Below, in pieces: positions 9,847 through 38,212 of a stretch of DNA of 47,303 nucleotides; the stretch's first letter is position 1, and every line of letters starts with the position of its first letter. The position numbers and the translations under genes were made by a program. The notes under the pieces are model-generated. The model ran no database searches, was not told where the DNA came from, and saw only the letters and a list, made by a program, of their open reading frames with translations. Origin of the DNA: a bacterium (GTDB taxonomy: Bacteria > Patescibacteriota > Minisyncoccia > Phycocordibacterales > Phycocordibacteraceae); contig JAJYJQ010000003.1 in assembly GCA_021789225.1 (NCBI GenBank), forward strand, positions 1 to 47,303. Direction: 5' to 3'.

Positions 9847-9895
9847 CACACGAGAAAACGCGGCCGGGCTTCGCCCGGCCGCGTTTTCTCGTGTG
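9847..9895. terminator. Bidirectional terminator hairpin with a 22-bp perfect stem
   Basis: cacacgagaaaacgcggccggg-cttcg-cccggccgcgttttctcgtgtg lies between convergent yidC and the last gene of the T4SS-like cluster. Confidence 0.7.
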
Positions 9896-9900
9896 CGTGC

Positions 9901-11112
9901 TTACGGCGTCAGCCGATACGCCCACAGTGAGCCGTCCTGCTTGTTCACGAATGAAAGCACCTGCTCTGCCGGGTCGAGCGCGAGTGCAGTGACATCGAAG
10001 GCCCCCTTCCCTGCGCTTGCAGGGTCGAGCACGAGCTGTACGTAGCGATTCTTCGCGTCTATGCGCCAGACACGGTCGCTGAAGGCAGCGGCGCCCTGGT
10101 ACCAGTCGTCGGGATACATGGCGGCGGGCGGCGAGTCGGGAATGCCGCAGTAGGCTGAGCTGCTGTCTGCTGCCCACACGCACTTGTCAGCAAGGGTCGC
10201 GACCGGGAGCGCTGTGGTCGCGTATGTCGAGAGGTCGAGGAGCGCGAGCTGCATGGCGCCTTGGGTGGAGCGGTAGCTCACGAGCGCCTTCGTGCCGTCC
10301 GGGCTTATGCGTGTGGAAAGGCCTTTGTATGGACCGGCAACCTGCTCAAACGCGCCGTTATGCACGAGAAACGCGTACCCGTTTTGGGTGGCAGAAGGTT
10401 TCGTGTAGACGAGATAGCTGTCCTTCCCCGCGAATGCGACCTGTATTTCCCCGAGCGGCGTCTGGAATGCGGTTTTCGGGTTGCGGTAGTCCGCAGTTGC
10501 GCGTGTGGCGATGGAGCCGTTTGCGCCGGAGACGAGCGCGAGCACGCCCGTGCTGTTTGCTGCGAGCGCCGTGATGTCTTGCGGGAGGTAGAATCCATCG
10601 GTGCCGTTTGCCGAAAGCGCGTAGGTCGCGATGGTGGGCGCGCCGTTTTCGTTGGAGAGGTAGCGCAGATAGGCGCGTGAGCCGTCTGGGAGCCATGAGG
10701 CTTCCACCACGCCCGGGATGGTCTTGTTTGAAATCCGCGTGTTCGTGCCCGAGGTCACGTCATAGGAGTACACATTGCCGCTCGGGCGGTCGATGTAGCG
10801 TACGACGGCCTGGCTGGCGCTCGGTGTGCTGCTCGCGGCGCTGTCGAAGGCGAGCATGCTCGGGACGACCGGGCCGGTGGCGATCTGGCTCAAGCGCGCT
10901 ACGGCTGCCGCGCCGCTCGCGCCCTCCTCTTGCCCGAGGAGCGCAAACCCGCCCTCGCTGCCACCCGGACCAGTCGAGCTCGCGAGCGGGAACCCGCCGA
11001 TCGAGACGCCTGACCCTGTCTGGGACGAGGAGAAGAACAAGAAGTATGCGCCGGCTCCGATGAAAAGGATGGCGACGATGCTTGCGGCGAAGATGAATGT
11101 ACGTTTGTTCAT
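9901..11112 (-). CDS. Membrane-anchored protein with a predicted beta-propeller (TolB-like) ectodomain; last gene of the T4SS-like cluster
   Basis: 403 aa with an N-terminal TM helix (FIFAASIVAILFIGAGAYFLFF). Repeated strand-rich segments contain DG(S/T)(R/K)A motifs. The fold assignment is an inference. Confidence 0.6.
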   Translation of the reverse strand: MNKRTFIFAASIVAILFIGAGAYFLFFSSSQTGSGVSIGGFPLASSTGPGGSEGGFALLGQEEGASGAAAVARLSQIATGPVVPSMLAFDSAASSTPSASQAVVRYIDRPSGNVYSYDVTSGTNTRISNKTIPGVVEASWLPDGSRAYLRYLSNENGAPTIATYALSANGTDGFYLPQDITALAANSTGVLALVSGANGSIATRATADYRNPKTAFQTPLGEIQVAFAGKDSYLVYTKPSATQNGYAFLVHNGAFEQVAGPYKGLSTRISPDGTKALVSYRSTQGAMQLALLDLSTYATTALPVATLADKCVWAADSSSAYCGIPDSPPAAMYPDDWYQGAAAFSDRVWRIDAKNRYVQLVLDPASAGKGAFDVTALALDPAEQVLSFVNKQDGSLWAYRLTP

Positions 11113-11124
11113 AGGATTTCTGCG

Positions 11125-12162
11125 TTACTGACAATACGTAAGCGTATAATCAGGCAAAGAGAGCGTGCCCAAACAAGATTGACTAGTCAGTAACCGGTAT
11201 TTTGAATCGAGGGTCGTGCCGGGTGAAAGCTCGATAGAGCCGACCACGCTTCTGTCCAAATAATCCTGACATGATTTCTGGCTGATGAATACCTCCGCGG
11301 TATCTGTCCAGCACTGTTTCTGGGCATTGAAGAGGGCGTATTGGGCAAAGAATATGGAGGTGATGTTTCCCAATCCCAAATCTTGCCGATCAGCCATATC
11401 TATTTGAACCCCACACGCTCCACTGCCTTGCATGGGTGCGCAAATCTCGCCGCTCTTCTTGCCGCAACTGTTTGCATCAGCGTAGTAAGTAATGCTGTTC
11501 GCTGCTACCGAACTTTTCACCGACTCACACACCTGCTGAGGAGTTTTTGATTTGGGCAGTTCCTTGAGAGGAGGCGGTGTTAATTCTGTGCCGATCTGGA
11601 GCGAGAGGATCTTCGGGTTGATGAGATTGAAAATGATCACTGGCGAGAGGACGAGGAGGAGACCGGTGAGCGCCATGTAGATCCTGTTTTTACCCTTCTC
11701 TTTGCTGGTAACGCTTGCGCCGCTTCCCATGAATTCGAAACCGCCCATAATGATCTCGACCACGGCGAGCACGATCGCGATGCCGATGAGGTATTGATAG
11801 AGCGAATTCAGGAAGGCGCTCATGCCGTTTGCATCGGCCGACTGCGCGAACGCGGGGAAACCGGTCATGGAGATGAACCCGTCGGATGGTTTGGCCGGCG
11901 CGGTATTTGCAGTTGGCTGGACCGGCGCAGCCGTACCGGTAAGGTTTGATACCGAAGGACTGAATGAGTTAGCATTTACAACACCCTGCGCGGTTTGTTG
12001 TGTTCCTTGCGTAAATACGGACGGCTGCAACTGGCTGGTGGCGCCGGAGAGGTCGGGTGATTGCGCGGCAGTGCCGGCTGCGAAAGCGTGCGTGCCACCA
12101 AGCAGCAGTGCGATACCGAGTGAGAGATAGCCTATTCTTTTGAAAACCCGTTTGTTTCTCAT
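11125..12162 (-). CDS. VirB2/TrbC-like T4SS pilin core fused to a C-terminal Cys-rich domain
   Basis: 345 aa with a signal peptide (LLLGGTHAFA) and a low-complexity linker. Two hydrophobic helices flank a G-rich loop (IGIAIVLAVVEIIMGGFEFMGSG...KEKGKNRIYMALTGLLLVLSPVIIFNLI), as in VirB2/CPR T4SS pilins. An approximately 150-aa domain with 8 Cys follows. Confidence 0.6.
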   Translation of the reverse strand: MRNKRVFKRIGYLSLGIALLLGGTHAFAAGTAAQSPDLSGATSQLQPSVFTQGTQQTAQGVVNANSFSPSVSNLTGTAAPVQPTANTAPAKPSDGFISMTGFPAFAQSADANGMSAFLNSLYQYLIGIAIVLAVVEIIMGGFEFMGSGASVTSKEKGKNRIYMALTGLLLVLSPVIIFNLINPKILSLQIGTELTPPPLKELPKSKTPQQVCESVKSSVAANSITYYADANSCGKKSGEICAPMQGSGACGVQIDMADRQDLGLGNITSIFFAQYALFNAQKQCWTDTAEVFISQKSCQDYLDRSVVGSIELSPGTTLDSKYRLLTSQSCLGTLSLPDYTLTYCQ

Positions 12163-12163
12163 A

Positions 12164-13186
12164 TTACAAACCGAAGAGACCTGAGCCGCGCGCTTCAGCT
12201 TTGAAGAGGAGCTGGAAGTTAGCGGATGCGCGGGCGCTTGTAGCGGGCGTCGAGATGGAGACGGCGAGTGCCTCGCTCCCCTCTCCGGAGCCTTGCGGCT
12301 GGAGGGTTATGCGCTCGCCGGTTTGGGATTTTTGTTCGTTTAGGTACCACGTGATCTGCGGCGCGTTCGTGTCGGTCGGAAAGCCGTACGGTACCGCCAC
12401 GAAGGTTGCGTCGCTGCCGGGCATCGTGTACGAGCTGGAGAGGGCATGTTCATAGAGCGTGCCCATCAACGGGTCGCTCGCATACACGCGTACCGTCGGG
12501 TCGGTCGGCGCAAGCGTGATGCTCTGGGAGGCGACGAGGGAGCCAGCCTGATCTTGCACAGTCACCGCGACCGTCTTCGTGCGATACGGGAGCGGCGTCG
12601 CGACGATGACGGCGTTCTTCCCGATGCCGGAATCCTTCACGAGCGTCTGCGAATCGTCCACGCGCCAAGTGTAGGAGAGCGTGTGGGGGTCGATCGGCGT
12701 GCCATCTTTAGTACGGAAGTCGGGCACGGCGACGATGCGCGCGCCGCCCATCACGGGGATGCCGGATTTGCCCGGATACAGTATCGGTGCGCTCGAAAGC
12801 GGCTCGGTGACGAGCACGAGCCCGGCCGGGCGAAGCACGACGGTTTTCTGGTAGGTCTGCCCTGCTGAAGAGACGCTGACGGAAATAGACATCGGCGCGC
12901 CGCCGGCGCCTGCAGTGAGGGAGACGGGCGTCCGTCCGGTCCCGTCCGCGACCTTCTTTCCGTTTACCGACACAGAGAAGGTGCTGTTGGCGAGATTGAG
13001 CGTGGAGCTTTCGAGCGAAAGGGTGAAAGGCTGGTGCGGCGCGGGGCTTGCGGGTGAGAGCGTGAGAGAGATCGGGTCGATATCCATGCCGACTCCGCCC
13101 AGGCCCTGTGCCATGCCGGGCATGGGGGCGACCGATAGCAGCGCGAGGGTTAGCGCGAGTGCGGAAGCTATCGTCAGGGTTCGCAT
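12164..13186 (-). CDS. Secreted protein with repeated beta-sandwich-like segments (hypothetical)
   Basis: The start is placed at the ATG at 13186 (MRTLTIASALALTLALLSVAPMPGMA signal peptide). It is preceded by a hairpin, then TATACT, 6 nt, and the ATG. The longer ORF extension to 13369 is Arg-rich and overlaps the upstream gene. Confidence 0.65.
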   Translation of the reverse strand: MRTLTIASALALTLALLSVAPMPGMAQGLGGVGMDIDPISLTLSPASPAPHQPFTLSLESSTLNLANSTFSVSVNGKKVADGTGRTPVSLTAGAGGAPMSISVSVSSAGQTYQKTVVLRPAGLVLVTEPLSSAPILYPGKSGIPVMGGARIVAVPDFRTKDGTPIDPHTLSYTWRVDDSQTLVKDSGIGKNAVIVATPLPYRTKTVAVTVQDQAGSLVASQSITLAPTDPTVRVYASDPLMGTLYEHALSSSYTMPGSDATFVAVPYGFPTDTNAPQITWYLNEQKSQTGERITLQPQGSGEGSEALAVSISTPATSARASANFQLLFKAEARGSGLFGL

Positions 13187-13192
13187 ACGCAC

Positions 13193-13226
13193 AGTATAAC
13201 GCGCCCGCGCGCAAGCGCGGGCGCGT
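13193..13226 (-). promoter_or_regulatory. Internal hairpin (13199-13226) plus TATACT -10 (13193-13198), 6 nt before the ATG at 13186
   Basis: acgcgcccgcgc-gcaa-gcgcgggcgcgt is followed on the minus strand by TATACT-gtgcgt-ATG. Confidence 0.45.
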
Positions 13227-13248
13227 CTTCGTGCACATGCGTGGATTG

Positions 13249-13830
13249 CTATACGGTCTGTGCCGCGAACGCCGGAGCGAAGCTGTAGCGGTGCTCTTGC
13301 TGCTGGGCGCTCGCGAGAGCCGCCTGGTATTTCAGCTCCGCTTCCGTATCTTCTTTGCGTGTCTGCCAAACGATGACGGCCACGCCGATGAACAAGGCTG
13401 GGATGATATTAAGTATCGGGATGAAGCCGACGACGAAACTCACTGCGCTGGTGACGAGGCGTTTCGTCTCTTTGCTTCCGCCGATGAGCTCGATGCCGGC
13501 GAGCATGAACCAGATGTAGAAAAGGCCCCACGCGACCGTATCAATAGCGCTCGCGGCAGCGTCCCCCGCCGTTTCCACAGCGGCAGCGCCTGCGCCGGCG
13601 GTACCCCACTCAAGGAGGCCTACTCCCACCACCGTCGCTCCTCCGACGACGGTGCCCGCCGTGCTCCCCAGCGTCGAGTCGACCACGGCCTTCGTTCCTG
13701 CGCCCGCGATGAGCGGAAGCGTGAACGCGAGTGTCGAGAAGAAAAGGATGAACGTGCTGAAGAAAGCTGCGGTAGCCAGCATGAGCCAGGCGCGCGTCAC
13801 AGGCATCTTCTTCTGGGGCGGCTTGGGCAT
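13249..13830 (-). CDS. Gly/Ala-rich polytopic membrane protein (hypothetical, T4SS-like cluster)
   Basis: 193 aa with about 4 predicted TM helices. It starts 6 nt after the VirB4-like gene. Confidence 0.6.
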   Translation of the reverse strand: MPKPPQKKMPVTRAWLMLATAAFFSTFILFFSTLAFTLPLIAGAGTKAVVDSTLGSTAGTVVGGATVVGVGLLEWGTAGAGAAAVETAGDAAASAIDTVAWGLFYIWFMLAGIELIGGSKETKRLVTSAVSFVVGFIPILNIIPALFIGVAVIVWQTRKEDTEAELKYQAALASAQQQEHRYSFAPAFAAQTV

Positions 13831-13836
13831 AGGCGG

Positions 13837-16800
13837 CTAGAGTCCCTGCTCGTGCGCTTCAAGGCGCTCTTTCTCTTGCTTGATAGCAAGCAGCTGCGAG
13901 GGGTCGGAGGTGATGATCTGGTCTTCGGTGTACGACGCGACGATCTTTATGGCGACGTGTTTCAAGCCTGCGAAAAAGAGCCCCTCCCCCACTCCCGATT
14001 CGAGCAGCAGGTATTTTTCCTCATCGGTGAGGTTGAAGGTCTTTTGCAACACATCTACCGTGGTCGGCGATTGCTTCAAGAGGAGCTGGATGGATGAGTT
14101 GGTGAGGATCGGGCGGCCATAGGGCGAGCGCAAGAAGTCTTCCACATCTTGGGTGATGGTGCAGACGCCCAGGTAGTATTTGCGGCCGCGCTTGGCGAGG
14201 CTGTAGAGGAAAGAGGCGGTGTCTTCGGATTTCATCATCCACCACGCCTCGTCGATGATAAGGAGGCGCTTCTTGAGATTGCGGCGGATCGCGTTCCAGA
14301 TGTAGTGCGAAATGATGTACATAGCCACCGGCTTGAGCTCGTCTTCCATGTCACGCACGGAGAAGACGACGAACTGGCGGTTGATGTCGATGTTCGTCGC
14401 CTGGTTGATGAAGCCCGACCACGAGCCGCTCGTGTACTTGGCGAGGCGCTCCACCAAGGAATCGCTTCCTTCCATGCCGGTCAGCACGGCTTCAAAGTCG
14501 GAGAGCACCGGCGGCTCGATGTTCGAGAAATCGCTGTCGCCGGTGATGTCTTTGAGCGCGTACGTCTCGGTGACGGCGCGGTCGATGAGCGCGTCTTCTT
14601 CCGGCGTGAGGCCACCGAGCATGATGCGGAAGAGACCGACGAGCGTGATGATGTTGTTGCGCAAGAGGTCGCGCGGGTCCTCCCCTTCTTGCACGGCTGG
14701 CAGGTCGAAAGGGTTGATGTGGTGCTCCGAGGAGAGCGAGATGTTGAAGGAGCGCCCGTCGGTCGCGGCGGCGAGCTGCTCGTACTCACGCTCCGGGTCG
14801 ATGACGATGACGTCTGTGCCAAACATGAGCGAGCGCAGGATCTCGAGCTTGGTGGCGTATGAATTGTGCACAAACATACCGTTTTCGCCCGCGAGAAATA
14901 CCTCATCGTCCACAGTAAGGTCGTAGACGTAGCGGTCGCGGCGGTTTGGCGTCTTCTCGATGGAAACAATTGGATCCCAGAGCAGATCCGCGTTGGCGAG
15001 ATTTCGGAACATACGGATGATTGCCTCGATGCGTGGCAGTGCGGCAGCTGCGCGCTCGTATGCGTCGGTAATGAAGGCGCTTGTCGAACGCAGTAGCTCG
15101 TAGGAAGAGTTGTCGCGCTCACCGCGCAGCGACATGGAGAGATGTGGCGCGAAGCCGTTTGCCGGCAGCCCCATGCTGCGCAGCCCGTCTGCAACTATTG
15201 TCTTCAAAGTAGACACATCGCTCGGCGCGTCTATACCGGCGGCTGCGCAGATGGCGAGCGCATTTTCGGCACGTGGCGGCATTCCCTGTTTGACGGTGAA
15301 CCACGAGCTCCCGAGAGCTTCGATGAGCCGACGGTTCAGCTCGCGATTCTCGGCCGCTTTTGCAACTATGGACTCGATTGTCGGCAGGTCGGCGAGCGTC
15401 TCCATGAGCGGCCGCATGTTGCGGAAGCGTTGCACACGCGCTTCGAGCGCATCCGTAAGGCGCGCAAGGCGTTTGGGCGAGAAGTTATGCCCCTGGCGAA
15501 GAGCGGAAAACTCAGGCATGTTCCCGAGCTGCGATCCGAACACGTCGGCGAGCTCGTCGGCGAGCGGTGCGAGGCCAGGGATACTATCGACGTTCGTGTT
15601 GGCGGTCTCTTTCGCGAGAGAAGCGAGGGCGGCTTTTTTGCGTGCAGAGACGAATCCGATGTGTGCCTCGAACGCGCGGAGATACTCTTGTCCCGAAATG
15701 GACAGCTGCCAGAAGGTTCGCTTCCGGCCGGTGACGGCGTAGCGCTTCTCGCGTTTATGAACACGCGCGACGATGCCGAAGTAGTAGAGGAGGTACGCGA
15801 TACCGGAGAGAAGTTCGCGAGACTTGGATACAGCGGTAATCGCTGCGCCGTCTATACCGCCATCCCCTTCGAAGTACGCGCGCAGGTAGGCAGCAACCGT
15901 TTCTGTAGGTGCGGAAAAGAGTGTGCCAGGCACCGATTTTGTTGCCGAGTATCCATGAACTCCGAGCGCCCGCGCAAGCGTGATACACGGCACGTCGCCG
16001 CTCGCAACTGCGCGGTCTACGCGGTAGTGCCCCACGCCGAGTGTGCCAAACGCACGCTCGATATCGGCGACAACCTCGGCATCCGTATTTGTGACGATTG
16101 CGGCGCGGTCAGTCACGGTCCCTTCGGAGGAAAGGTAGCCCAACAGTGTGCCGAGCGCTTCGGAAAGCGGCAGGAGCGCGGGCAGGCGACTCTTGCCGCT
16201 CGCGGTGGTGAGTGTGAGCGAGTGCGCGAGAGTGTCATCGGGCGCGATGCCGAGCTGCGCGAGGAGCCCGAGAAGATAGCCGATCGGCATGCGCCGGCCT
16301 GCTTCGTAGTGGTAGAGATACGGGTCGAGTCTCGCATCGACGGGTGCGGCCGTGCGGGCTTTGCGCGCGCGCCGATAGGCGCGCGCGATTTCTTCCGCGC
16401 CGAGCACGTAGATACGCGGGTTCTTTGCAAACGCAGGAAGCGAGAGAAGGTTCAGCGCGCGCGTCGGCTCGGTCGGCCCGGATACTCGTCGCGGCAGCGG
16501 GACATTCTCACCCACGGCGATGTCCGCACTCTTTGCAGTCACGACGCGCCCTTCGCGCAGGACGAGCATGTTGTGGTCGGCGGTCGTGGTGATGGTGCGG
16601 CCGCTCTTAGTTTTAAACGTGTAGTAGGCATCGGGCGCGTCCTTCCGCGCGGCGACCGACACGGCGCTCCACCGCCCTTTCAGGTTTTTGTCGAAACTGA
16701 ACACCTCGATGCCCGGGTCGATAGCGCCTTCGAGATCATCGTCAACCGATATGCATCCGAGTCGTTTGATGGTTCGTTCTACGAGCGGGCCGATTTTTTC

Positions 16801-17655: not shown

Positions 17656-17664
17656 AGGCGTGTG

Positions 17665-18303
17665 CTAATTTTCCAAGCGGATAGGATTTTCAAGCTCGCC
17701 CGGGTTGAAGGAGCGGTAGAGGAGCTCAATCACCTCTTCTGTCCCGAGGGGCACCGCGCGCACACCGGAAGCGCCGAGACCGGAGGCGACCAGCCCCAAG
17801 CGCTGTTGGAGCTGCACGAGGTGTTCTTCGAACGAGTCGCTCGCGTGCGCCGGTCCTGAAGACGAGCCGCCGAACATCTTTCCCACCGCATCTTTTGCGG
17901 CGGTCGTTCCGGTCGGAGAATACGGCACGACGACGTAGAACGACTTGGTCATGATGTTCGTGTTCTCGGTGAACGAGCGGATGAAGGACATGTATTCGCG
18001 CAACTGCAGGCGCAGGAGCTCCGTCTGCTGCGATTTCTCTTTCTCCGCGAGGAGCGCGAGGTACGGGCGGATGTCCATCTTGCGCGACTGCACGACGATC
18101 TCGACCGGGAAATCGAGCGTATTCAAGAAGGTTTGGAAGCCGCTGATGATCGCGTTTTGCTCGTCGGCCGATTTGAGGCCGAAGTTGACCGAGGAGCAGA
18201 TGAGGACGCCGCGATAGCCACCGTCTTTGAGGACGATGACGCCATTCCGGATCTCTTTCACCGGGACGAATTTCTGCGCGGCGCTGGAAGCGGGAGTGCT
18301 CAT
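17665..18303 (-). CDS. Hypothetical soluble protein of the T4SS-like cluster (212 aa)
   Basis: It has an ATGA overlap with the upstream PrgI-like gene and lies 9 nt upstream of VirB4. The N-terminal pattern VPVKEIRNGVIVLKDGGYRGVLICSSVNF.LKS..EQ resembles the entry domain of VirB4-type proteins. That resemblance is an inference. Confidence 0.6.
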   Translation of the reverse strand: MSTPASSAAQKFVPVKEIRNGVIVLKDGGYRGVLICSSVNFGLKSADEQNAIISGFQTFLNTLDFPVEIVVQSRKMDIRPYLALLAEKEKSQQTELLRLQLREYMSFIRSFTENTNIMTKSFYVVVPYSPTGTTAAKDAVGKMFGGSSSGPAHASDSFEEHLVQLQQRLGLVASGLGASGVRAVPLGTEEVIELLYRSFNPGELENPIRLEN

Positions 18304-18734
18304 GATCGTGAAGAGGGGCCCTGTTCATTAATGTCCATCGACCACGCGAGCTCCTGCAGCTTTCCTTGCGTGAGGCGGGAGGTGTGCGGTGTGGGGGCGA
18401 TAGGCGCGACCCCCGTCGACGCCTGCGGCGTCGACGGGTTCGCAGCCGCCTTCGGCGCCTCTTTCCGCCACAGGAAGAGGTGCGGCGAGGTGTAGAATTT
18501 CGCGGCTGCTTCAAGCACGCTGATGAACGGCTTGTTGTTCACCTTGTAGAACGCGAGTGCGCCGGAAAGGCCGACGACCGGGATGGCGAGCAGTATCGCG
18601 ACGATGAGCGGGAGGTAGCGCAGGAGGGCAATGGTCATTCCCACTCCGCCCGCGACATAGATGAATTGTTTGAGCGTGAGCGGCCCGACGATCTTGCTCT
18701 CCACCTCGATGAACTGCGGTACCTGATACTCCAT
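18300..18734 (-). CDS. PrgI-family (VirB3-analogue) small membrane protein
   Basis: The ATG at 18734 gives MEYQVPQFIEVESKIVGPLTLKQFIYV... followed by two TM helices, the typical PrgI-family opening. It is preceded by TATACT, 7 nt, then ATG. The ORF track begins at a GTG at 18755. Confidence 0.7.
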   Translation of the reverse strand: MEYQVPQFIEVESKIVGPLTLKQFIYVAGGVGMTIALLRYLPLIVAILLAIPVVGLSGALAFYKVNNKPFISVLEAAAKFYTSPHLFLWRKEAPKAAANPSTPQASTGVAPIAPTPHTSRLTQGKLQELAWSMDINEQGPSSRS

Positions 18735-18741
18735 TGCGTAC

Positions 18742-18774
18742 AGTATACCGGACACGCGCGCGCCTCGCGCGCGT
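18742..18774 (-). promoter_or_regulatory. Hairpin (18754-18774) plus TATACT -10 (18742-18747) ahead of the PrgI-like gene
   Basis: acgcgcgcg-cct-cgcgcgcgt follows the stop of the Pro-rich gene. On the minus strand it is followed by TATACT-gtacgca-ATG. Confidence 0.45.
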
Positions 18775-18780
18775 TCTCCC

Positions 18781-19704
18781 CTACTCTAGCGGCTCGCGGT
18801 ACGGGTCGATGGCGTACTCTTTGACGAGCGGTTTTTCGGGAATGGTCGAATAGGAGGGTGTGGAGACGAGCGGTTCGCGGACGAGCGCTGACGGCGTCGC
18901 GGATGGCTGCGGCGTAACCGGTGCTGGTGGAGGCGGAGGCGTGAGCTGCACCGCAGCAGGTGGCACTGGCGCGGGCTCTTGCTCCGGCACGGGCGCTGGC
19001 GAAGGCGTTTCCTCGCTCACGTTTCGACCGGCACTCTCGGATTTGGCTTGAAATGGCGGAAATCCTGCTTCGGCACTCTCCTCCTGCCCGGGCAGCACGA
19101 GCAGTGGTTTCGGAGCGTTTTCGGGAACGGAGATTTCCGGCTGTGGCTGTGGTATGGAAGGCGGCGCAACGTCTTGTGGCTCTGCTGCAGGCAAAACCTT
19201 TTCTTGCTCTGGCGTAGGTGCAGGCGCAGGCATAGGCGCGGGAGTTGGGCTTGGAGTGGATACCGGCACAGGAGGCTCTTCCCTCTCCGGCTCTGGCGGC
19301 GAAACGGGCTCCGGCTCCGGGGACGGAACGGGTTTGGGCTCGGGAGTTGGTGCAGGTTTGGATTCGGTCGTGCGGACGGGTTCTTTCTGGGAGGTCCTTT
19401 CGCGCAGTTTCTGATGGGTCGGAATAAATATCTTCTGATTAAGTTCAGAGATGATGCTTTTTGCTGTTTCTGCAGGCATGCCCTCCGCAACAAGGCTGCT
19501 CAAGAAATCCAAAGGACTCAAGAGGCCGAGGAGCAGGTTGCGGTTATACTCAGCAATCTTTCCCATGACGTCAGTGTGCAGTTTGTTGCGAGCGGCGATA
19601 TCTACGATAAGCTCGATAAGTTCGGTGCTCGAAAGTACATCACGCACTTCCTGGGGCGCATTTTGATAACTCGCAAGAATCTCTTCTTGTGTTGGTGTTT
19701 TCAT
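18781..19704 (-). CDS. Proline-rich protein (hypothetical, T4SS-like cluster)
   Basis: 307 aa with a helical N-domain followed by long PxP/EP repeats (PAPTPEPKPVPSPEPEP...). Confidence 0.6.
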   Translation of the reverse strand: MKTPTQEEILASYQNAPQEVRDVLSSTELIELIVDIAARNKLHTDVMGKIAEYNRNLLLGLLSPLDFLSSLVAEGMPAETAKSIISELNQKIFIPTHQKLRERTSQKEPVRTTESKPAPTPEPKPVPSPEPEPVSPPEPEREEPPVPVSTPSPTPAPMPAPAPTPEQEKVLPAAEPQDVAPPSIPQPQPEISVPENAPKPLLVLPGQEESAEAGFPPFQAKSESAGRNVSEETPSPAPVPEQEPAPVPPAAVQLTPPPPPAPVTPQPSATPSALVREPLVSTPSYSTIPEKPLVKEYAIDPYREPLE

Positions 19705-19707
19705 AGG

Positions 19708-21891
19708 CTATAGGCCCCAGCGAGCTACGAGAGTCGGATCTGAAACTCTAAGAGTGATAAGTTGCTGCTGCAGCTGCGTTTGTGCCGGCGTTGCCGGAAT
19801 CGGGTTTATCATCACATCATTAACGTATGTGGCCAGCGCGGCTTGAACGTTATTTGAGAGATTGTTCGGATTGTCGAGGAGGCCTCTTATTTGCTGGTAG
19901 GAGAGCGCCTCAAGCGTATCTCGCTTCGTAAGGATGTTGTCGGGCAGCTTTGCAATATCGGCCGACTTCATCGAATTTATAACATCCTCCGTATCAACTT
20001 TAGTGTCAAAGCGCTTACCGCGAGCATCTCTGATAATCGCTGGATTAACCTTGCCGCTCGCGCCGAGGTCGTCGGCCTGTTTGTCGGCGAGAGATTTGAG
20101 GAAGGCCTCACTTGCATGTAGGGCGGCGGGCGCGTTTTCGACGTCCTTCTTGGCCAAGCCACGCACTGCCTTTTGTGCATTCCCGCGCGCATTCTTATAC
20201 GCCTGCTCGGCAGCTGTGTATGCTGGTGTGCCCGGCGGGGTTGCGGGATTGTTTCTTACTGCGTCAAAATCTGTTTTCGCTTTGGTAAGGGCCTCCACAG
20301 CACCGGTTGCTGTTTGATAGCGCTTCTTACCAAGCTCCCCTTTCTGGGAATCCAATAGCTCGGTACCTTTCATGAGCGCCTCGAATTTCTCTGGCGAGAG
20401 ATTGGTTGCGAGTGTGGAGACACCCTCCCTGATTCCCTTAAGCTCGGAGAGGTCTTTCGTCGACATGCCGTTAATCATCTTGCTCAAATTGTTCTTAAGG
20501 CCCGGCATCTGAGCATCGTAATTAGCCTGGGTGATAGTGCCCGCTGCCAGCTGCGCATCAAGGTCGGCAATCTGTCGAGCGAAATCTTCCACAGCCTTCT
20601 TATTTTCCTTTCTTTGAGCAAGACGCTTTTCCGTATCCATTTCACGGCGATTTTCTTCCCCGATCTTCTTGAGGAGGGTCTTTCCTTCGCCGGCGCCCAC
20701 AAAGTCGCGTGCCTTTGTTGAAATCTTTCGGTACGAGAGGTCTTCGGGCGCGCCAGCGGCTTTCATGCCGGGGAGGCGGCGGAAATCAAAATTGGTTCTT
20801 TCGATGGGACGCATAGTTTGATTCACTGCGCGCGAGAATTTATTGTCACCGGTCAGGCTCGAAGCTTTACGGAGCACTCTCGCGCTGCCGCCAATCCCGA
20901 GATTAACCGCGCTGTTGACTACACGGCCGCTCCACTTCGTTGCGAATCCGGCGGCTTGGCTTGAAAGGCTCTTGGCGATGATGAGGGAGGCGATGAGAAG
21001 GCCGATGATGATGGCGAAGGAGAGGAGGAGGTTGGCCACTTGTCCGGCGCCTGCGCTTGTGAAGACCGACGCGGCGTCCGTGGTGGCGCCGGAGAGCGCA
21101 AAGAGCTGCGGCTCGCTCCCCACCTTCACGACAACCAGGAGGAGGAGCATCATGACCGGCGCGAAAATCGTCTGGTCGGTGAGCGCCTTCCACCACTTCT
21201 TGCCGTACTCTTTCACCATCGGTATGTCCGCAAGCCCGAGGAAGCCGATTGGCGAAACGATGAAGAGGAAGAGCAGGATCACGAATCGCGCGATGAGCAT
21301 GATCGCGATGGCACCGAAGACGAGCGCGGTGATGGCGAAGAGCAGCATCCCCGCGAAGAACGTGAAGAACCAGTGTCCTTGCGCGGCGGAGCCAGCCTGA
21401 GCGGCTTGCGTCGCCTCACCGTTTTGGAAATTGTAGAGCGTCGTGAGGCCGAGATTGGTCATGAGGTGGTTCGTGACCGGCTCGGTGGATACGTCGAAAG
21501 ATTGGGGCATGCCTGCCGAGCCATACATCTGCGCATAGAACTGCGTGGCGAAGAGGTTGCCGGTGTCCACGATGAACTCCGCGACAAAGAGCGAGAAGTT
21601 GAGCGTGATCGCCACGATGAGGAGCGAGGCGAGCGCTTTCTTCGCGCCATACGTGGCGTTGTCGAGGATGGTGGCGATGCCGATGGCCATGAAGCCGAAG
21701 ATGAGGGCGATGTTGCCGATGTCACGGAAGACGCCCCACGCCACCTGGATGGAGGTGAAGGCGCCCACCATCGTGCCCATGCGTACGACGGTGTAGTAGA
21801 GGGTGGCGCCCATGAGCGTGCCCATCGCGCCGGCGAGCCAGCCGAAGAGCGAGAGGATCCACATGAACGCTTGGCCGAGTAGTGCGTCCAT
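19708..21891 (-). CDS. Large polytopic membrane protein, VirB6/TrbL-like N-terminal half plus helical C-terminal domain
   Basis: 727 aa with about 7-8 TM helices in the first ~330 aa and a charged helical tail. Its position between secreted proteins and the VirB3/VirB4 analogues supports the call. The family assignment is an inference. Confidence 0.6.
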   Translation of the reverse strand: MDALLGQAFMWILSLFGWLAGAMGTLMGATLYYTVVRMGTMVGAFTSIQVAWGVFRDIGNIALIFGFMAIGIATILDNATYGAKKALASLLIVAITLNFSLFVAEFIVDTGNLFATQFYAQMYGSAGMPQSFDVSTEPVTNHLMTNLGLTTLYNFQNGEATQAAQAGSAAQGHWFFTFFAGMLLFAITALVFGAIAIMLIARFVILLFLFIVSPIGFLGLADIPMVKEYGKKWWKALTDQTIFAPVMMLLLLVVVKVGSEPQLFALSGATTDAASVFTSAGAGQVANLLLSFAIIIGLLIASLIIAKSLSSQAAGFATKWSGRVVNSAVNLGIGGSARVLRKASSLTGDNKFSRAVNQTMRPIERTNFDFRRLPGMKAAGAPEDLSYRKISTKARDFVGAGEGKTLLKKIGEENRREMDTEKRLAQRKENKKAVEDFARQIADLDAQLAAGTITQANYDAQMPGLKNNLSKMINGMSTKDLSELKGIREGVSTLATNLSPEKFEALMKGTELLDSQKGELGKKRYQTATGAVEALTKAKTDFDAVRNNPATPPGTPAYTAAEQAYKNARGNAQKAVRGLAKKDVENAPAALHASEAFLKSLADKQADDLGASGKVNPAIIRDARGKRFDTKVDTEDVINSMKSADIAKLPDNILTKRDTLEALSYQQIRGLLDNPNNLSNNVQAALATYVNDVMINPIPATPAQTQLQQQLITLRVSDPTLVARWGL

Positions 21892-21894
21892 AGG

Positions 21895-23721
21895 CTATGG
21901 GGTTGCGGGCGCGGTGGCCGTGACTTTGACCGGCGCGCACTGCGAGAGCATGCTCTGCGCGTTTGCGGTGATGAGCTGGAGCTGGCTCACGAGCGGCGCC
22001 TGCGACTGGCCGTTTACCGAAGTGTCGAGCGTGTTTGCGGGAATGTTCAGAGGCACGGGAGAGGGTGTCGCATCGCTTTGCATATTGGAGACATCGCCTG
22101 CGGTCGGATGCATGCTCGACAAGTTCATGACGTCTTGGGTGTAGAACGTAATCTGGGTCGGGTCGCCCTTTTCCTGATTTATGCGCGTGATGAGGTCCAG
22201 AGCGCTTTGGATGGTCGTTTCTACCGCGGTCTGCTCGCTGTACACGGTCGCGACCGGTCCGGAGTTGAGCGCCTGCTGGGCACGGGTCTGATACGTCTGA
22301 CATTGTTGCACGAGCGTGTCCGGATTCGTGCTGAGAGTGCTCGTGTACTGCGGTGCATACTGGGCCGCAACGAGCGTGTGAAGGGTCGAAGACGCTGTCT
22401 CGGCGGCGCTGAAAAGCGTATCCCATGCCGTGGTGTAGGCATCGACGTTTGATTGCAGGATTGCAGGAGAGGCGGGGCCGGTTGCGGCGTTCTGCGCCAG
22501 GCTGCTACCCAATGCAAGGGCTTCAACGGAACCATTCCCATACGAGTTCCAATAATTGCTACGGGCATCATTGGTATTTATGCCGAGATTAACCTTCCCG
22601 ATGCCGAACCCGAAGAGGCCGTTCTGCTGCAGGCCGGTCGCCGCCATGCTACCCATCTGATAGGTTTGCAAGAGAGTGACCAGGCTGCCCGCCATGCCTT
22701 CCAGGTCGCCGGTTATCGACCATTTCTTCAGGAGTGTATCGCTCACGTTCTTGAGCGAATCCGCGACGACCGAGCCTGGGGTGGAGATGAGCCCTGGCTG
22801 GCCATTCTTGTCGAGGCACGGGTCGCCCGCCGCGTTCCCTACCGTTTGGTCGTAGGTGTAGCTGCCGGCAGTACCGACCGTATTGAAAGAATCTTTTTGC
22901 CTATTCGCTATCTCCGCAGCATCGGTGGTGGCTTGGTCGCCAGCGTACGTATCATTTTGTGCGTAGCTGGTGTCGCACCACGAGAGGAAGCCGCTGTTCG
23001 CATAGAGCTGGTTAAGCGCGTTATCGGTGATGTTCGCGGCATCTTCTGACATTATGTTCTGGGCTTTGTACGTGTAGCAGTATGGATTGTTATCGCACTC
23101 GGTATTGAGCGAGAACCACGCGTTCCAGCCTCCCTTGCTGAAATTGCCCTGCACGTACGCGAGCGGGTCGGATGACGCCTCACCGAGCGTGCAGCGATGC
23201 GCGTCGAAGAAGTGGTCCGCGCCAGCAGTACTCTGGAAGTAGTTCGAGCGCATGCTTGCGGCGATTGCGCTTGCAAAGGGAGAGTTCGATTGTCGCGAGA
23301 GCATATCCATGAAATGCATCGAGCGCGCGTCTTGGATGCCCTGCTTGTACCCGTTCACGTTGGCTACATAGAGCCCGAGCCCCTTGCCGTTGTCGCCATT
23401 GATGAAATTGATGACGCCCGCCGTGACGGACTTGAGCATGTTCCCCGACTCCATCCAGAGCATCGGGGCGATGACGTTCTTGTCGACCCAGAGTGCCACA
23501 TTCGCTACTTTAGATAGGTAGGAGTTCGCGTCCGTGGCAGCTTGATGGATTGTCGATCCCGCCTCGTATGTCATTGTCTTTAATTCGGTCCATGACATGT
23601 TGTTGGTTATCTCGGCAGGATACGCATGAGCCTTTTGCGGCACCGCAAGAAAAGATGCAGGCACCACGAGCGTGAACAGGAGCACGGGCGCGATAATCCT
23701 CTGAGCAGCGAAATTTCTCAT
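21895..23721 (-). CDS. Large secreted protein (hypothetical, T4SS-like cluster)
   Basis: The start is placed at the ATG at 23721 (MRNFAAQRIIAPVLLFTLVVPASFLAVPQKAHA signal peptide), which makes an ATGA overlap with the upstream gene. About 608 aa with several Cys pairs. No motif was recognised. Confidence 0.65.
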   Translation of the reverse strand: MRNFAAQRIIAPVLLFTLVVPASFLAVPQKAHAYPAEITNNMSWTELKTMTYEAGSTIHQAATDANSYLSKVANVALWVDKNVIAPMLWMESGNMLKSVTAGVINFINGDNGKGLGLYVANVNGYKQGIQDARSMHFMDMLSRQSNSPFASAIAASMRSNYFQSTAGADHFFDAHRCTLGEASSDPLAYVQGNFSKGGWNAWFSLNTECDNNPYCYTYKAQNIMSEDAANITDNALNQLYANSGFLSWCDTSYAQNDTYAGDQATTDAAEIANRQKDSFNTVGTAGSYTYDQTVGNAAGDPCLDKNGQPGLISTPGSVVADSLKNVSDTLLKKWSITGDLEGMAGSLVTLLQTYQMGSMAATGLQQNGLFGFGIGKVNLGINTNDARSNYWNSYGNGSVEALALGSSLAQNAATGPASPAILQSNVDAYTTAWDTLFSAAETASSTLHTLVAAQYAPQYTSTLSTNPDTLVQQCQTYQTRAQQALNSGPVATVYSEQTAVETTIQSALDLITRINQEKGDPTQITFYTQDVMNLSSMHPTAGDVSNMQSDATPSPVPLNIPANTLDTSVNGQSQAPLVSQLQLITANAQSMLSQCAPVKVTATAPATP

Positions 23722-24755
23722 GGCGTGGTGTGTTTCGAGCTCTCTGGCGCGGCGGTCGAGATGAAGTTCACGAACATCCATCCGGGCGCATCCTTTGGCA
23801 GGGTGACGCCCGCGTTCGTGTAGACGCTGTGAATGTCGCTAAACGCCTGCAGGAAGTTCTGCAGCGCCTGGGGGTATTGCTTCAGGGCGAGGATGGCCGC
23901 GAGCGGATCGTCATTGACGTGCGTGAAATCATCCGAGATTTCCCCGAGTCGCTTTATGGAGTTTATGAGCGTGAGATCTGCGCCCGCGAGCTCTTGCGGC
24001 ACCGGGAGCACGGAGAGTCCGATAGCGATCTTCCGATAGCCGTTCGCGATGTCTCTGAGATTGTTGATGTCGGCCGCGTCGGTCGGGTCGTTATTATTGA
24101 GCGCATCTTGCACATAGTCGATGGGCGAGCCGCTTGCGGCGATGCTCGTGTTGTTGAATACCGCATCTGCGGAGGCGGCAAACGCCTTGAGTGCTTCAGG
24201 CCCGGAGCCGGATACTTTGAGGTCGCGCGCGGTCTTGAAGTCGGGGGACGGACCTATGGTCTGTGAAAACGCATTGAACGCCTGCGTCACGACGTTTTGC
24301 AGGTCGGCTTGCGAGAGTGCTGCGCCGCCATTTTGCTGCTTTGCGCCGATGTAGAGCATGAAAAAGGTTTGGGTGAACGCGGCAGTGAGGGTGCCTTGCG
24401 CCGGTGCGCTCGGTAGGGACGCGTCGGTAGAGGAGGCGGAGCTGGGGGCAGCCTCAGCCGCGGGCGCCTTCGGGACGATGAGCCCTTTTGCGACGGCTTC
24501 CTCGTCGGTCATCCCGAGCCCCAGGGAGTCTGCTTTGTGCGGGTCAGTGCCGTAGAGGGCCTCTTCCCAGTCGGGGAGGCCGTCGCTGTCGCTGTCGCGG
24601 CTCGCGACGGCTTGGAGGAGTGCGTCGGTGGATGAAGCGTCAGCGTGCCTGGGGGCGAGTCTGCCGCCCGCCAGGAGATAGGCACCGCCAATCATCACGA
24701 GGGCGAGCGCCGTCGCAGAGAGAATCCCCCACTGTCGTTTCATCCAAGCCACCAC
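23718..24755 (-). CDS. Membrane-anchored protein with a Ca-binding-like DSDSDGLPDWEE repeat (first gene of the cluster)
   Basis: 345 aa with an N-terminal TM helix (ILSATALALVMIGGAYLLA). The start is either the GTG at 24755 or the ATG at 24743. Confidence 0.6.
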   Translation of the reverse strand: MVAWMKRQWGILSATALALVMIGGAYLLAGGRLAPRHADASSTDALLQAVASRDSDSDGLPDWEEALYGTDPHKADSLGLGMTDEEAVAKGLIVPKAPAAEAAPSSASSTDASLPSAPAQGTLTAAFTQTFFMLYIGAKQQNGGAALSQADLQNVVTQAFNAFSQTIGPSPDFKTARDLKVSGSGPEALKAFAASADAVFNNTSIAASGSPIDYVQDALNNNDPTDAADINNLRDIANGYRKIAIGLSVLPVPQELAGADLTLINSIKRLGEISDDFTHVNDDPLAAILALKQYPQALQNFLQAFSDIHSVYTNAGVTLPKDAPGWMFVNFISTAAPESSKHTTP

Positions 24756-24761
24756 TCTTGC

Positions 24762-24807
24762 AGTATAGCAGTTTTATACATGGGCCCGCGCACCGCTGGC
24801 GCGCGGG
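24762..24807 (-). promoter_or_regulatory. rsmA terminator hairpin (24785-24807) followed by an extended -10 TGCTATACT (24762-24770) for the T4SS-like cluster
   Basis: cccgcgc-accgctggc-gcgcggg is followed on the minus strand by TGCTATACT. The -10 ends 6 nt before the GTG and 18 nt before the ATG. Confidence 0.45.
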
Positions 24808-37118: not shown

Positions 37119-37125
37119 TGGGCGT

Positions 37126-37154
37126 ACCATACCATGCCTTGATTATTTTTGCAA
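37126..37154 (-). promoter_or_regulatory. rpsO promoter TTGCAA, 17 nt, extended -10 TGgTATGGT
   Basis: The -35 is at 37149-37154 and the -10 at 37126-37131, with TGG at 37132-37134. Seven nt separate the -10 from the ATG. Confidence 0.55.
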
Positions 37155-37240
37155 CTGTTTTGGAGTGCTGTCTCTTTCCTGTTCCAAACCTGGCGTCTCG
37201 GCGCACTTTATTGTGCGACGCTGCGCTATACTGAAACGAT

Positions 37241-38134: not shown

Positions 38135-38212
38135 TCAACAACCCGCCGCAACCGAGGGTTTTCACTTTCCTCCAAGGTCCCCGCAACAAAGCCGGCGGGG
38201 CAAGCTTCGAAT

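Follow-up and report, generated by a model that had tools for sequence, protein, structure and literature searches.

The eleven-gene cluster described here is most probably (about 0.82) a chromosomal, origin-proximal Patescibacteria T4SS of the Paceibacteria/Kaiserbacteria-like form, serving host contact or cargo transfer rather than conjugation, and it is carried by an ultrasmall Paceibacteria-type bacterium. Profile comparisons reveal a monoderm-type (MPF_FATA-like) inner-membrane core of PrgI/VirB3, TrsD, VirB4 and a divergent VirB6, joined by a VirB2-type pilin and six lineage-specific envelope proteins (g01, g02, g04, g08, g09 and g11). A sequence-only reading of the same DNA had described a chromosomal, non-conjugative T4SS derivative, a description supported by profiles, synteny and the missing relaxase. 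The novelty that it implied is not sustained: relaxase-less, MPF_FATA-derived, pilin-bearing, oriC-proximal Patescibacteria T4SSs have already been published (PMC12102498; PMC10633639; review PMC12857230). The kind of system has been known since 2023-2025, and the interpretation is right, not new.

The genes form eleven co-oriented, closely packed ORFs at 9901-24755 on the minus strand of the window (the whole 47-kb stretch of DNA analysed), flanked by yidC/rnpA/rpmH/dnaA on one side and ksgA/uvrD on the other:

23718..24755, minus strand: g01, anchored Ca-repeat protein with an N-terminal TM, a TSP3-type Ca-binding repeat (aa 54-75) and a helical domain of ~250 aa
21895..23721, minus strand: g02, 608-aa exported protein with 7 Cys, ATGA overlap with g01
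19708..21891, minus strand: g03, divergent TrbL/VirB6-like polytopic protein, 5-6 TM in aa 1-310, TrbL via orthologues
18781..19704, minus strand: g04, Pro-rich protein of 307 aa, no TM, 21 % Pro
18300..18734, minus strand: g05 (prgI), PrgI/VirB3-like, Pfam PrgI E = 2.1e-9, 38.2 bits against a cutoff of 27
17665..18303, minus strand: g06, TrsD/TraC-like protein of 212 aa, homologous to the VirB4 N-terminal domain, ATGA overlap with prgI
13837..17655, minus strand: g07, VirB4 ATPase precursor (N-extein 16855-17655, intein 14863-16854, C-extein 13837-14862)
13249..13830, minus strand: g08, Gly-rich 3-4-TM protein of 193 aa, directly after virB4
12164..13186, minus strand: g09, exported 340-aa Ig-like protein
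11125..12162, minus strand: g10, VirB2/TrbC-type pilin, Pfam TrbC 25.2 and T4SS_pilin 24.8 bits, both slightly under cutoff
9901..11112, minus strand: g11, anchored propeller-like protein with an N-terminal TM and an all-beta TolB-like domain, the last cluster gene

All eleven tightly packed ORFs proposed earlier were found, and the ATGA overlaps at 23718-23721 (g01/g02) and 18300-18303 (prgI/g06) are exact. The proposed spacing of 1-12 nt holds for six gaps (3, 3, 9, 6, 1 and 12 nt) and fails for two, the 46-nt gap between g04 and prgI and the 62-nt gap between g08 and g09, both of which contain promoter-like elements. The claimed distance of about 1 kb to rpmH-rnpA-yidC was mistaken, as g11 and yidC are convergent, lie 55 bp apart and have a hairpin in common, which is probably a bidirectional terminator closing the cluster:

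9846..9896, unstranded: perfect 24-bp-stem hairpin between convergent g11 and yidC, MFE -52.8 kcal/mol, z = -10.2

The four core assignments of the sequence-only reading (VirB4, PrgI/VirB3, a TrbC/T4SS_pilin pilin and, via orthologues, a divergent TrbL/VirB6) pass profile searches. The PrgI-like protein was found in 77 of 82 related loci and is 100 % identical to its counterpart in one of them, L081. Its neighbour g06, previously regarded as an orphan imitating the VirB4 entry domain, belongs to the known TrsD/TraC-like family (TrsD/TraD, VirB4 N-terminal and PF26593 matches), which reduces the seven unrecognised components to six. It matches the NCBIfam models VirB4_plasma (1e-7), CD1110 (3e-5) and TrsD (8e-4), all far below cutoffs; its orthologue in L081/L082 (99 % identical) is recorded as PF26593 TraC-like, and 80/82 loci encode it.

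The g03 and g10 proteins of the window lie under the Pfam gathering score, and their identities are assigned because their orthologues match the respective families. For g03, which itself has no Pfam match, TrbL is matched by 7 of 41 orthologues (1.9e-7) and TrbL_4 by one (9e-7). It has five predicted TM-like segments and a hypervariable, helical C-terminal domain of ~415 aa; it is 49 % identical to L081, with the C-terminal half unalignable at the DNA level. For g10, T4SS_pilin is matched by 33 of 39 orthologues (3e-11) and TrbC by 12. This protein comprises a signal peptide, a 90-aa Q/S/T-rich spacer, a two-TM pilin core (aa ~99-181) and an 8-Cys domain of ~160 aa. Identity to L081 is 39 %, the pilin core being conserved and the outer domains hypervariable, and the Cys-rich C-terminal domain is hypervariable even between near-identical strains.

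The VirB4-like ATPase call stands, with the correction that the 1272-aa ORF consists of a 608-aa VirB4 and a 664-aa intein that had been overlooked:

14863..16854, minus strand: 664-aa class-1 intein with LAGLIDADG homing endonuclease, g07 aa 268-931

Pfam matches to g07 include P-loop_TraG (3e-20), AAA_10, Intein_splicing (3e-16) and LAGLIDADG_3 (4e-20), and searches against the PDB returned VirB4 4AG5 (1e-35) and PI-PkoII (6e-17). The spliced protein carries Walker A (GSGK|S) and Walker B (LLIIDEAW) and is 82-99 % identical to intein-free Paceibacteria VirB4s of about 589-616 aa (the best 120 of 8000 scored candidates, all 8000 with E <= 1e-30); the named matches are from Paceibacterota, Kaiserbacteria or Minisyncoccota. 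The intein is inserted between the Lys and Ser of the P-loop and, judging from its motifs (Ser1, TTADH in block B, VHN|S), retains all splicing residues; VirB4 would have to be spliced before it could act as an ATPase. L081, a 99 %-identical relative, has an empty site, a clean 1992-bp indel relative to the window with five synonymous differences flanking the insertion site, and no intein was found in virB4 of the 82 close loci. GC3 is 0.70 in the intein versus 0.84 in the exteins, and the nearest intein relatives sit at this position in VirB4s of other Patescibacteria (extein identity 35-63 %). VirB4 is a known intein host: Novikova et al. 2016 (PMC4760082) list five such inteins, from Firmicutes and Proteobacteria. 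Those P-loop inteins are likewise class-1, carry LAGLIDADG and follow the Walker A lysine with Ser as +1 nucleophile, whereas the present one resides in a chromosomal Patescibacteria T4SS gene.

The six accessory proteins were examined by profile and structure searches; presence counts refer to the 46 complete related loci unless 82 are given. Pfam TSP3_bac matches g01 (E = 7e-5) and 15 orthologues (best 5e-9); the protein has a single TM-like segment (aa 11-29) and was detected by HMM in 35/46 loci. No match to g02 was found in Pfam, NCBIfam or PDB profile searches. Its AF2 model (pLDDT 48.8) is confident only in C-terminal helices 419-595 and retrieved nothing from the PDB with E < 0.1 in Foldseek; its alignment contains the conserved motifs NWINSGF.GSPAF, FSQGGW.AWF, NNPYG, GFLSW and TPGSVI. 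It is present in 34/46 loci, and its identity to L081 is 75 %, where housekeeping genes reach 99 %. The g04 protein combines a helical N-terminal domain of ~100 aa, a Pro-rich linker and a conserved C-terminus. Its identity to L081 is 67 %; by blastn only 19361-18794 aligns to L081, and the N-terminal part covaries with the g03 C-terminus, this VirB6-C/Pro-rich-N cassette being hypervariable between near-identical strains. A conserved IP..N..PA motif and a charged C-terminal tail characterise g08, which was found by HMM in 47/82 loci and has no family match in Pfam, NCBIfam or PDB profile searches.

The remaining two are beta-rich. From its sequence, g09 looks like tandem Ig-like beta-sandwich domains: Pfam Cadherin-like scores 24.8 bits against a cutoff of 24.2, profile comparison with the PDB gives phage Hoc Ig domains (E = 0.003), and a C-terminal FGL is conserved. 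The propeller domain of g11, with its conserved Cys pair, matches an NCBIfam TolB propeller (5e-5) and PDB TolB (0.006), and its AF2 single-sequence model has ~26 strands (pLDDT 44).

Whether all these proteins belong to the apparatus bears on a narrower interpretation, in which the T4SS is prgI-trsD-virB4 alone, perhaps with the pilin, while g01-g04, g09 and g11 are unrelated envelope genes held by oriC-proximal synteny. The flanking housekeeping genes are equally syntenic, 0/6 orphans match a T4SS family, and hhalign against pCF10 and pSK41 proteins gave no match other than a weak one between g03 and pCF10 PrgH (probability 20 %). In nine related loci g01-g03 are missing beside prgI, and these three may not be obligatory parts of the system. 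This interpretation is nevertheless improbable: co-translation is suggested by the start/stop overlaps and the gaps of 1-12 nt, a single leaderless unit comprises g09, the pilin and g11, each of the 46 complete loci has g09 and g11 together with virB4, g03 is TrbL/VirB6 via orthologues, and the T4SS locus of Southlakia epibionticum also holds essential exported Ig-like and large unannotated proteins (PMC10633639).

The reading as a host-contact T4SS agrees with published systems. In Paceibacteria, TrsD, PrgI, VirB6 and VirB2 lie near virB4, a relaxase is absent, and dnaA/dnaN/rnpA/ksgA/rpmH are neighbours (Quinonero-Coronel et al. 2025, Microb Genom, PMC12102498). The window has the same chromosomal arrangement of VirB4 with adjacent TrsD and PrgI/VirB3, VirB6-like protein and VirB2-like pilin, likewise without nearby relaxase or T4CP. 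That study makes no mention of inteins, leaderless promoters or pilin extensions and leaves accessory genes unannotated, and its systems have an array of pilin genes instead of one. The S. epibionticum T4SS (SEML1_0006-0019) is essential by Tn-seq, bears pilins and lacks relaxase and T4CP (Wang et al. 2023, Cell, PMC10633639). It shares origin-proximity, VirB4, PrgI, TrbL/VirB6-like and T4SS_pilin proteins with the window, and an exported Ig-like protein (SEML1_0005) adjoins it, comparable to g09. This member of the Saccharimonadia differs in having six pilin paralogues inside the locus, and phage-tail-lysozyme/glucosaminidase and NTF2-like (VirB8-fold) proteins; none of these has a counterpart in the cluster described here, which has proteins of the g01, g02, g08 and g11 types in their place. 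The MPF_FATA systems (pGO1/pSK41 trs, pCF10 prg/pcf, pIP501 tra) share the TrbL-family membrane protein and CD1110-type VirB4, and pSK41 trsC-trsD-trsE has the same VirB3-like/TrsD/VirB4 order. Unlike the window cluster, they are borne on plasmids or ICEs, have genes for a relaxase, VirD4-type coupling protein, CHAP/lysozyme VirB1 and VirB8-like proteins, and lack the extended VirB2 pilin.

A nucleic-acid import or ComB-like DNA-uptake T4SS feeding a nucleotide-auxotrophic cell, instead of an export or contact machine, is a little less probable again than the core-only interpretation. Helicobacter ComB similarly lacks relaxase and T4CP, comM lies 8 kb upstream of the cluster, and T4SS genes of class ABY1 are found together with comF, recG and radA (PMC12102498), but ComB-type VirB7-10 parts are absent from the cluster. 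Competence in S. epibionticum, as PMC12857230 relays from PMC10633639, proceeds via type IV pili and ComEC; in that account a comEC mutant is viable and the T4SS essential, and the essential T4SS role there is therefore not transformation.

As had been claimed, no relaxase, VirD4/T4CP or VirB11 domain was found in ORFs of at least 140 aa (Pfam) or in called genes 10 kb past the low end of the window, 57 kb of the 81-kb contig in all; a T4CP may be encoded at another place in this genome, as described for many genomes (PMC12102498). The cluster itself contains neither a VirB8-like nor a VirB1-like gene, and the nearest candidate is an M23-LysM peptidase at 28168-29394. In the proposed comparison across Patescibacteria, 82 loci in MAGs of Kaiser-, Nomura-, Taylor-, Campbell- and Zambryskibacteria showed this gene order, which is constant in many Paceibacteria genera, with ksgA/uvrD on one side and yidC/rnpA/rpmH/dnaA on the other. 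The recurrence marks the cluster as a core chromosomal system, and because the order beside dnaA is conserved across genera an ordinary ICE is ruled out. It is accordingly very improbable that the cluster belongs to an integrated conjugative or mobilisable element with relaxase, coupling protein and integrase outside the region read. In favour of such an element, VirB4, PrgI and TrsD have their ancestry in conjugation systems of monoderms, ~24 kb of contig remains, and a lower-GC stretch contains a tyrosine recombinase (37241-38134). Against it, the recombinase has XerC/D-type architecture (SAM_1 plus Phage_integrase in Pfam), cluster GC equals that of its surroundings, 57 kb contain no relaxase or T4CP, and dozens of species-level genomes, spread over several candidate phyla-level groups, have the same order with uvrD-ksgA on one side and yidC-rnpA-rpmH-dnaA-dnaN on the other.

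In the favoured host-contact reading, VirB4 would energise pilus assembly via PrgI/TrsD/VirB6, pilus subunits would bear a variable Cys-rich outer domain, and g09 and g11 may be envelope scaffold or adaptor parts. By analogy with S. epibionticum, a member of the distant class Saccharimonadia whose epibiotic growth requires the homologous locus, the machine would serve host-cell contact, or the movement of protein or other cargo into or out of the host cell, not conjugation.

Expression was proposed to proceed from three units, opened by g01 (GTG 24755 or ATG 24743), prgI (leaderless ATG 18734) and g09 (leaderless ATG 13186):

24762..24767, minus strand: -10-like TATACT, 6 nt before GTG 24755 (g01), preceded by hairpin 24785-24807
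18742..18747, minus strand: -10-like TATACT, 7 nt before ATG 18734 (prgI), preceded by hairpin 18754-18774
13193..13198, minus strand: -10-like TATACT, 6 nt before ATG 13186 (g09), preceded by hairpin 13199-13226

TATACT occurs only six times on the minus strand in 47 kb, and the three hairpins are GC-rich (z = -2.6 to -3.0). The three-unit proposal gains support from phylogenetic conservation of two of its -10 boxes: the box is kept before prgI in 44/75 relatives (28 of those 44 with an upstream TGn), against a background of 0-6 % before internal genes, and before g09 in 35/73, with a conserved leaderless spacing of TATACT-6-8 nt-ATG. The g01 arrangement recurs in 6/26 relatives. Two or three leaderless transcripts would start at g01, prgI and g09. 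The layout is not cluster-specific, for uvrD, xer and cca share it; hairpin-TATACT-start is a genome-wide leaderless, SD-less promoter style.

The region 9901-24755 holds eleven ORFs, all on the minus strand and running from g01 towards g11, and is a real, well-delimited instance of the known Patescibacteria type IV secretion system (T4SS); it calls for no new category. The ORF map bore out the packed, co-oriented genes described in the sequence-only reading, an operon-like arrangement with exact ATGA start/stop overlaps at 23718-23721 (g01/g02) and 18300-18303 (prgI/g06). Six other junctions (3, 3, 9, 6, 1 and 12 nt) agree with its figure of 1-12 nt for the gaps, from which two longer ones depart: 46 nt 5' of prgI and 62 nt 5' of g09. 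The G+C content of the cluster, ~58-61 %, does not differ from that of its flanks, where three genes mark the position:

6895-8250: dnaA, low-side flank
9109-9846: yidC, low-side flank, convergent with the cluster and 55 bp away
24814-25617: ksgA, high-side flank

The other low-side housekeeping neighbours are rnpA, rpmH, dnaN, a class A PBP, ruvC, yebC and ruvB, and the high side also carries uvrD, an M23-LysM peptidase, a second M23 peptidase, comM, an NYN protein, a XerC/D-like recombinase, an EEP nuclease and the CCA-adding enzyme. This chromosomal site near dnaA, dnaN, rnpA, rpmH and ksgA is the one reported for Paceibacteria, whose T4SS locus adjoins the same genes (PMC12102498). A perfect hairpin with a 24-bp stem at 9846-9896 (-52.8 kcal/mol, z = -10) separates the convergent g11 and yidC and closes the cluster against yidC.

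T4SS genes in Saccharibacteria were reportedly noted by McLean in 2020. Wang 2023 noted them too and found SEML1_0006-0019, which include pilins and lack relaxase and coupling protein, to be essential for epibiotic growth, a requirement known only for S. epibionticum (PMC10633639). The phylum survey of Quinonero-Coronel 2025 described a monophyletic VirB4 clade related to MPF_FATA, with TrsD, PrgI, VirB6 and VirB2 in the surroundings of virB4, TrsD the most abundant of the components there, and relaxases almost absent (PMC12102498); a 2025 FEMS review treats these systems as recent but established additions to the T4SS superfamily (PMC12857230). In common with this Patescibacteria type (PMC12102498), the window has TrsD, PrgI and a pilin by virB4, no relaxase nearby and oriC-side housekeeping neighbours. 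The earlier proposal of a chromosomal, non-conjugative T4SS was therefore correct in kind and not in its novelty, the system being already in the literature.

Profile searches upheld the VirB4, PrgI/VirB3 and pilin assignments. The 1272-aa virB4 ORF matched Pfam P-loop_TraG (3e-20), AAA_10, Intein_splicing (3e-16) and LAGLIDADG_3 (4e-20) and, among PDB sequences, the VirB4 C-terminal domain 4AG5 (1e-35) plus several inteins. The closest homologues bear the name 'VirB4-like conjugal transfer ATPase, CD1110 family [Minisyncoccota]', and by sequence it appears related to the monoderm MPF_FATA/CD1110 type. Beside virB4, g05 exceeded the Pfam PrgI threshold (38.2 versus 27 bits). The adjoining 212-aa g06, previously set down as an orphan mimicking the VirB4 entry domain, is TrsD/TraC-like: NCBIfam searches, below curated cutoffs, matched the N-terminal part of VirB4 models at 1e-7 and 3e-5 and TrsD/TraD at 8e-4, and an orthologue at 99 % identity carries PF26593 TraC-like. 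The VirB2-like pilin g10 matched Pfam TrbC and T4SS_pilin at E = 2e-5, 1.8-2.7 bits under cutoff, and its assignment comes chiefly through positional orthologues, 33/39 of which match T4SS_pilin (best 3e-11) and 12/39 TrbC. The VirB6-like g03 fared less evenly. It has 5-6 TM segments, and its orthologues match TrbL/VirB6 in 7/41 cases (up to 1.9e-7) and TrbL_4 in one; the window protein itself has no Pfam match, and the family profile matched no VirB6 structure among PDB sequences.

VirB4 had been described as a plain ATPase, a description that overlooked a 664-aa intein:

14863-16854, minus strand: class-1 intein, VirB4 residues 268-931 (664 aa), in the Walker A loop, with LAGLIDADG motifs

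The splicing motifs are intact. The intein lies in frame within a conserved motif and begins with Ser268 directly after GSGK (insertion GSGK|S); block B (TTADH), two LAGLIDADG motifs and a C-terminal VHN followed by Ser932 (VHN|S932) complete the class-1 set of N-terminal Ser, block B, His-Asn and +1 Ser. The endonuclease domain (LAGLIDADG_3, 3.6e-20) resembles PI-PkoII and the V-ATPase intein. With the intein excised in silico, VirB4 is 608 aa long and has both Walker motifs, A as GSGKS and B as LLIIDEAW. Among 8000 VirB4 candidates scored, all at E <= 1e-30, the best 120 are 82-99 % identical to this spliced protein, and all 120 are intein-free and 589-616 aa long; named homologues come from Paceibacterota, Kaiserbacteria, Parcubacteria or Minisyncoccota.

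The closest relative, locus L081 (GCA_036391975.1), encodes a 99 % identical VirB4 with an empty insertion site, which reads TTCGCAAAATCCGGCTCAGGCAAA|AGCTACGCC... Against this empty allele the intein is an exact 1992-bp indel, with the blastn break at window 16856/14859. Five synonymous differences from L081 are packed into 15 nt around the site, and GC3 is lower in the intein (0.70) than in the exteins (0.84), both consistent with acquisition by homing. None of 82 related virB4 loci carries the intein; the best intein matches in the full library (HMMER) are other VirB4 proteins with the same site and the same junctions, GSGK|S..DEPVL ... FVHN|SY.VKLE, and the named carriers are Parcubacteria, Gottesmanbacteria and 'Patescibacteria group' MAGs. 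VirB4 already appears among the listed intein hosts (PMC4760082), so the window intein adds one more example to a known kind. Inteins go unmentioned in the 2025 Patescibacteria T4SS survey (PMC12102498), and the one in this VirB4 is previously unremarked.

Gene order across the related loci (80 from a contig scan with the spliced VirB4, 2 from exact look-up) was read by tblastn and family HMMs. A recurring order, uvrD-ksgA-g01-g02-g03-g04-prgI-trsD-virB4-g08-g09-pilin-g11 followed by yidC-(rnpA-rpmH)-dnaA-dnaN, was seen in MAGs labelled Kaiser-, Nomura-, Taylor-, Campbell-, Zambryskibacteria and others. Presence was counted over the 46 loci whose 10-kb flanks are complete:

g09 (Ig-like): 46/46
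g11 (propeller): 46/46
g03 (VirB6-like): 37/46
g01 (calcium-repeat anchor): 35/46
g02 (exported, 608 aa): 34/46
g08 (small Gly-rich TM): 21/46, short and divergent

Thus g09 and g11 accompany VirB4 in every complete locus, and g01, g02, g03 and g08 in fewer. In one group of nine loci with VirB4 ~83 % identical (L002, L005, L007, L008, L013, L015, L021, L031 and L033), prgI to g11 still lie beside yidC/dnaA, and g01-g03 were not found within 10 kb upstream; because they are missing beside prgI there, the upstream module g01-g03 is separable or relocated. With these counts in hand, the reading in which only the core is a T4SS and the other genes are unrelated is less likely than that of a single Patescibacteria T4SS. 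A DNA-uptake system is likewise the less likely interpretation.

There is no local DNA-processing module. As the sequence-only reading held, no relaxase or coupling protein was found by Pfam among window ORFs of at least 140 aa, and the gene calls of the adjoining 10 kb, where such genes could have turned the cluster into an ordinary integrative conjugative element, contain neither. No integrase with att sites bounding the cluster was found, and the ICE interpretation was rejected on synteny, which holds with the housekeeping flanks across genera.

Reassignment of g06 as TrsD-like reduces the seven proteins originally left unrecognised to six: g01, g02, g04, g08, g09 and g11. Searches of the orphans against Pfam (E <= 10) and NCBIfam (E <= 1) returned sub-threshold noise except for TolB, TSP3 and Cadherin-like hints. 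g01 combines a TM anchor, a TSP3 Ca-binding repeat and a helical domain; g04 is 21 % proline with no TM segment; g08 is a small multi-TM protein. g09 apparently consists of tandem Ig-like domains, with Cadherin-like at threshold and a weak Hoc match (profile versus PDB). g11 is TM-anchored and all-beta with a TolB-like propeller, weakly matched to TolB by profile versus PDB; an AF2 model from the single sequence reached pLDDT 44.4. The exported g02 has strongly conserved motifs; only 9 relatives were returned by the homologue search, none detectable outside the clade, and a fused g01+g02 query returned 5 proteins. Its AF2 model from an 11-sequence alignment (pLDDT 48.8) gave no confident fold from so shallow an alignment, and Foldseek hits of that model in PDB, generic helical bundles with nothing below E = 0.19, were disregarded. 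When family alignments were compared by hhalign with single pCF10 Prg and pSK41 Trs proteins, the sole match was g03-PrgH at 20 % probability; the comparison is insensitive, as even g05 versus PrgI and g06 versus TrsD scored under 30 %.

Three transcription units, each opened by a hairpin and TATACT, had also been proposed. The minus strand of the window contains six TATACT hexamers; three lie 6-7 nt before the g01, prgI and g09 starts, each with a GC-rich hairpin upstream. In relatives, where the intergenic sequences are otherwise unalignable, we scored TATACT or TATAAT 6-8 nt before an in-frame start:

prgI: 44/75 relatives, 28 with upstream TGn
g09: 35/73 relatives
g01: 6/26 relatives
internal genes: 0-6 %

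This conservation supports putative leaderless transcripts beginning at prgI and g09 and, less firmly, one at g01, so that the proposal stands for two units and is weaker for the third. The three sites escaped a generic scan for sigma-70 promoters and terminators, as they have no -35 box and no U-tract. The layout was ruled out as a cluster-specific signal: uvrD, xer and cca have the same -10-to-ATG spacing (upstream of 28068, 37241 and 42573), and no Shine-Dalgarno sequence precedes the 30 genes inspected in the window, so it is the general style of the genome. At many genes that open an operon, a -10-like box lies 6-8 nt before the start (11 nt for dnaA, 8250), which suggests that leaderless mRNAs are in use genome-wide. 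Separately, '...TAG(N0-7)CCT ATG' stands before each of the internal genes g03, g04, g07 and g08, for example TAGCCTATG twice, and this stop-CCT-start junction might be a reinitiation signal:

13831-13836, minus strand: stop-CCT-start junction
17656-17664, minus strand: stop-CCT-start junction
19705-19707, minus strand: stop-CCT-start junction
21892-21894, minus strand: stop-CCT-start junction

Protein identity to L081 varies widely within the locus:

PrgI: 100 %
DnaA, DnaN, VirB4, TrsD, g11: ~99 %
g09: 96.5 %
g01: 94.7 %
g08: 93.3 %
g02: 75 %
g04 (Pro-rich): 67 %
g03: 49 %
pilin g10: 39 %

The pilin keeps its two-TM core but has had the N-terminal spacer and the Cys-rich C-terminal domain replaced. 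DNA unalignable to L081 runs as one block through the C-terminal half of g03 and on into the N-terminal third of g04 (19361-20949). This block and that of the pilin (11125-12162) have no DNA similarity to L081, with flanks 95-98 % identical, and are strain-level replacement cassettes within the T4SS cluster. In L081 a further gene, for an AAA_14/DUF4143 ATPase, is inserted between g04 and prgI (L081 7641-8825); it has no counterpart in the window.

In the mechanism we propose, VirB4 would become active only after splicing and, with PrgI, TrsD and VirB6, would drive the building of a VirB2-type pilus or translocon. Both g02 and the extended domain of the pilin would be surface-exposed and under diversifying pressure, and the role, by analogy with S. 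epibionticum, would be host contact or transfer, not conjugation. A bolder and rather improbable extension makes the Paceibacteria T4SS a distinct architectural variant combining pilin display, a substrate-receptor cassette, a g09/g11 conduit and an intein gate. Each pilin subunit would then show a fast-diversifying Cys-rich domain on the pilus surface for host recognition; in place of the absent VirD4, the co-varying, hypervariable VirB6 C-terminal and g04 N-terminal domains would act as a substrate receptor specific to the strain; the Ig-like and propeller proteins, always linked to the locus, would be an envelope conduit substituting for VirB8; and the P-loop intein could gate the activity of a probably essential machine. 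At present the T4SS of Patescibacteria is considered the first one that is essential for the survival of the cell carrying it. This locus is a clean Paceibacteria example with a defined 11-gene set, Ig-like and propeller proteins always with VirB4, mapped candidate leaderless promoters, an intein-interrupted VirB4 with its matching empty allele, and diversification hotspots between strains in the pilin outer domain, the VirB6 C-terminus and g02; these features are concrete starting points for structural and genetic studies when Paceibacteria can be grown in culture.

Several neighbouring features were also recorded. Just past uvrD lie two M23 peptidase genes, at 28168-29394 (+) and 31123-32568 (-), one with LysM domains; an M23-LysM gene holds the same position in loci L016 and L070, and proteins of this type are counted as VirB1-like candidates in the 2025 survey (PMC12102498). 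At 37000-41000 G+C drops to 50-53 %, over a XerC/D-like tyrosine recombinase (37241-38134), a family-less 529-aa protein and an EEP-family nuclease; this stretch may be a small island, or a dif/xer region. Beyond position 1 on the same contig (L084), a free-standing 194-aa LAGLIDADG_3 ORF lies ~8 kb away (L084 1316-1900), and a type IV pilus PilB-like ATPase (L084 7390-9063) lies just outside the window.
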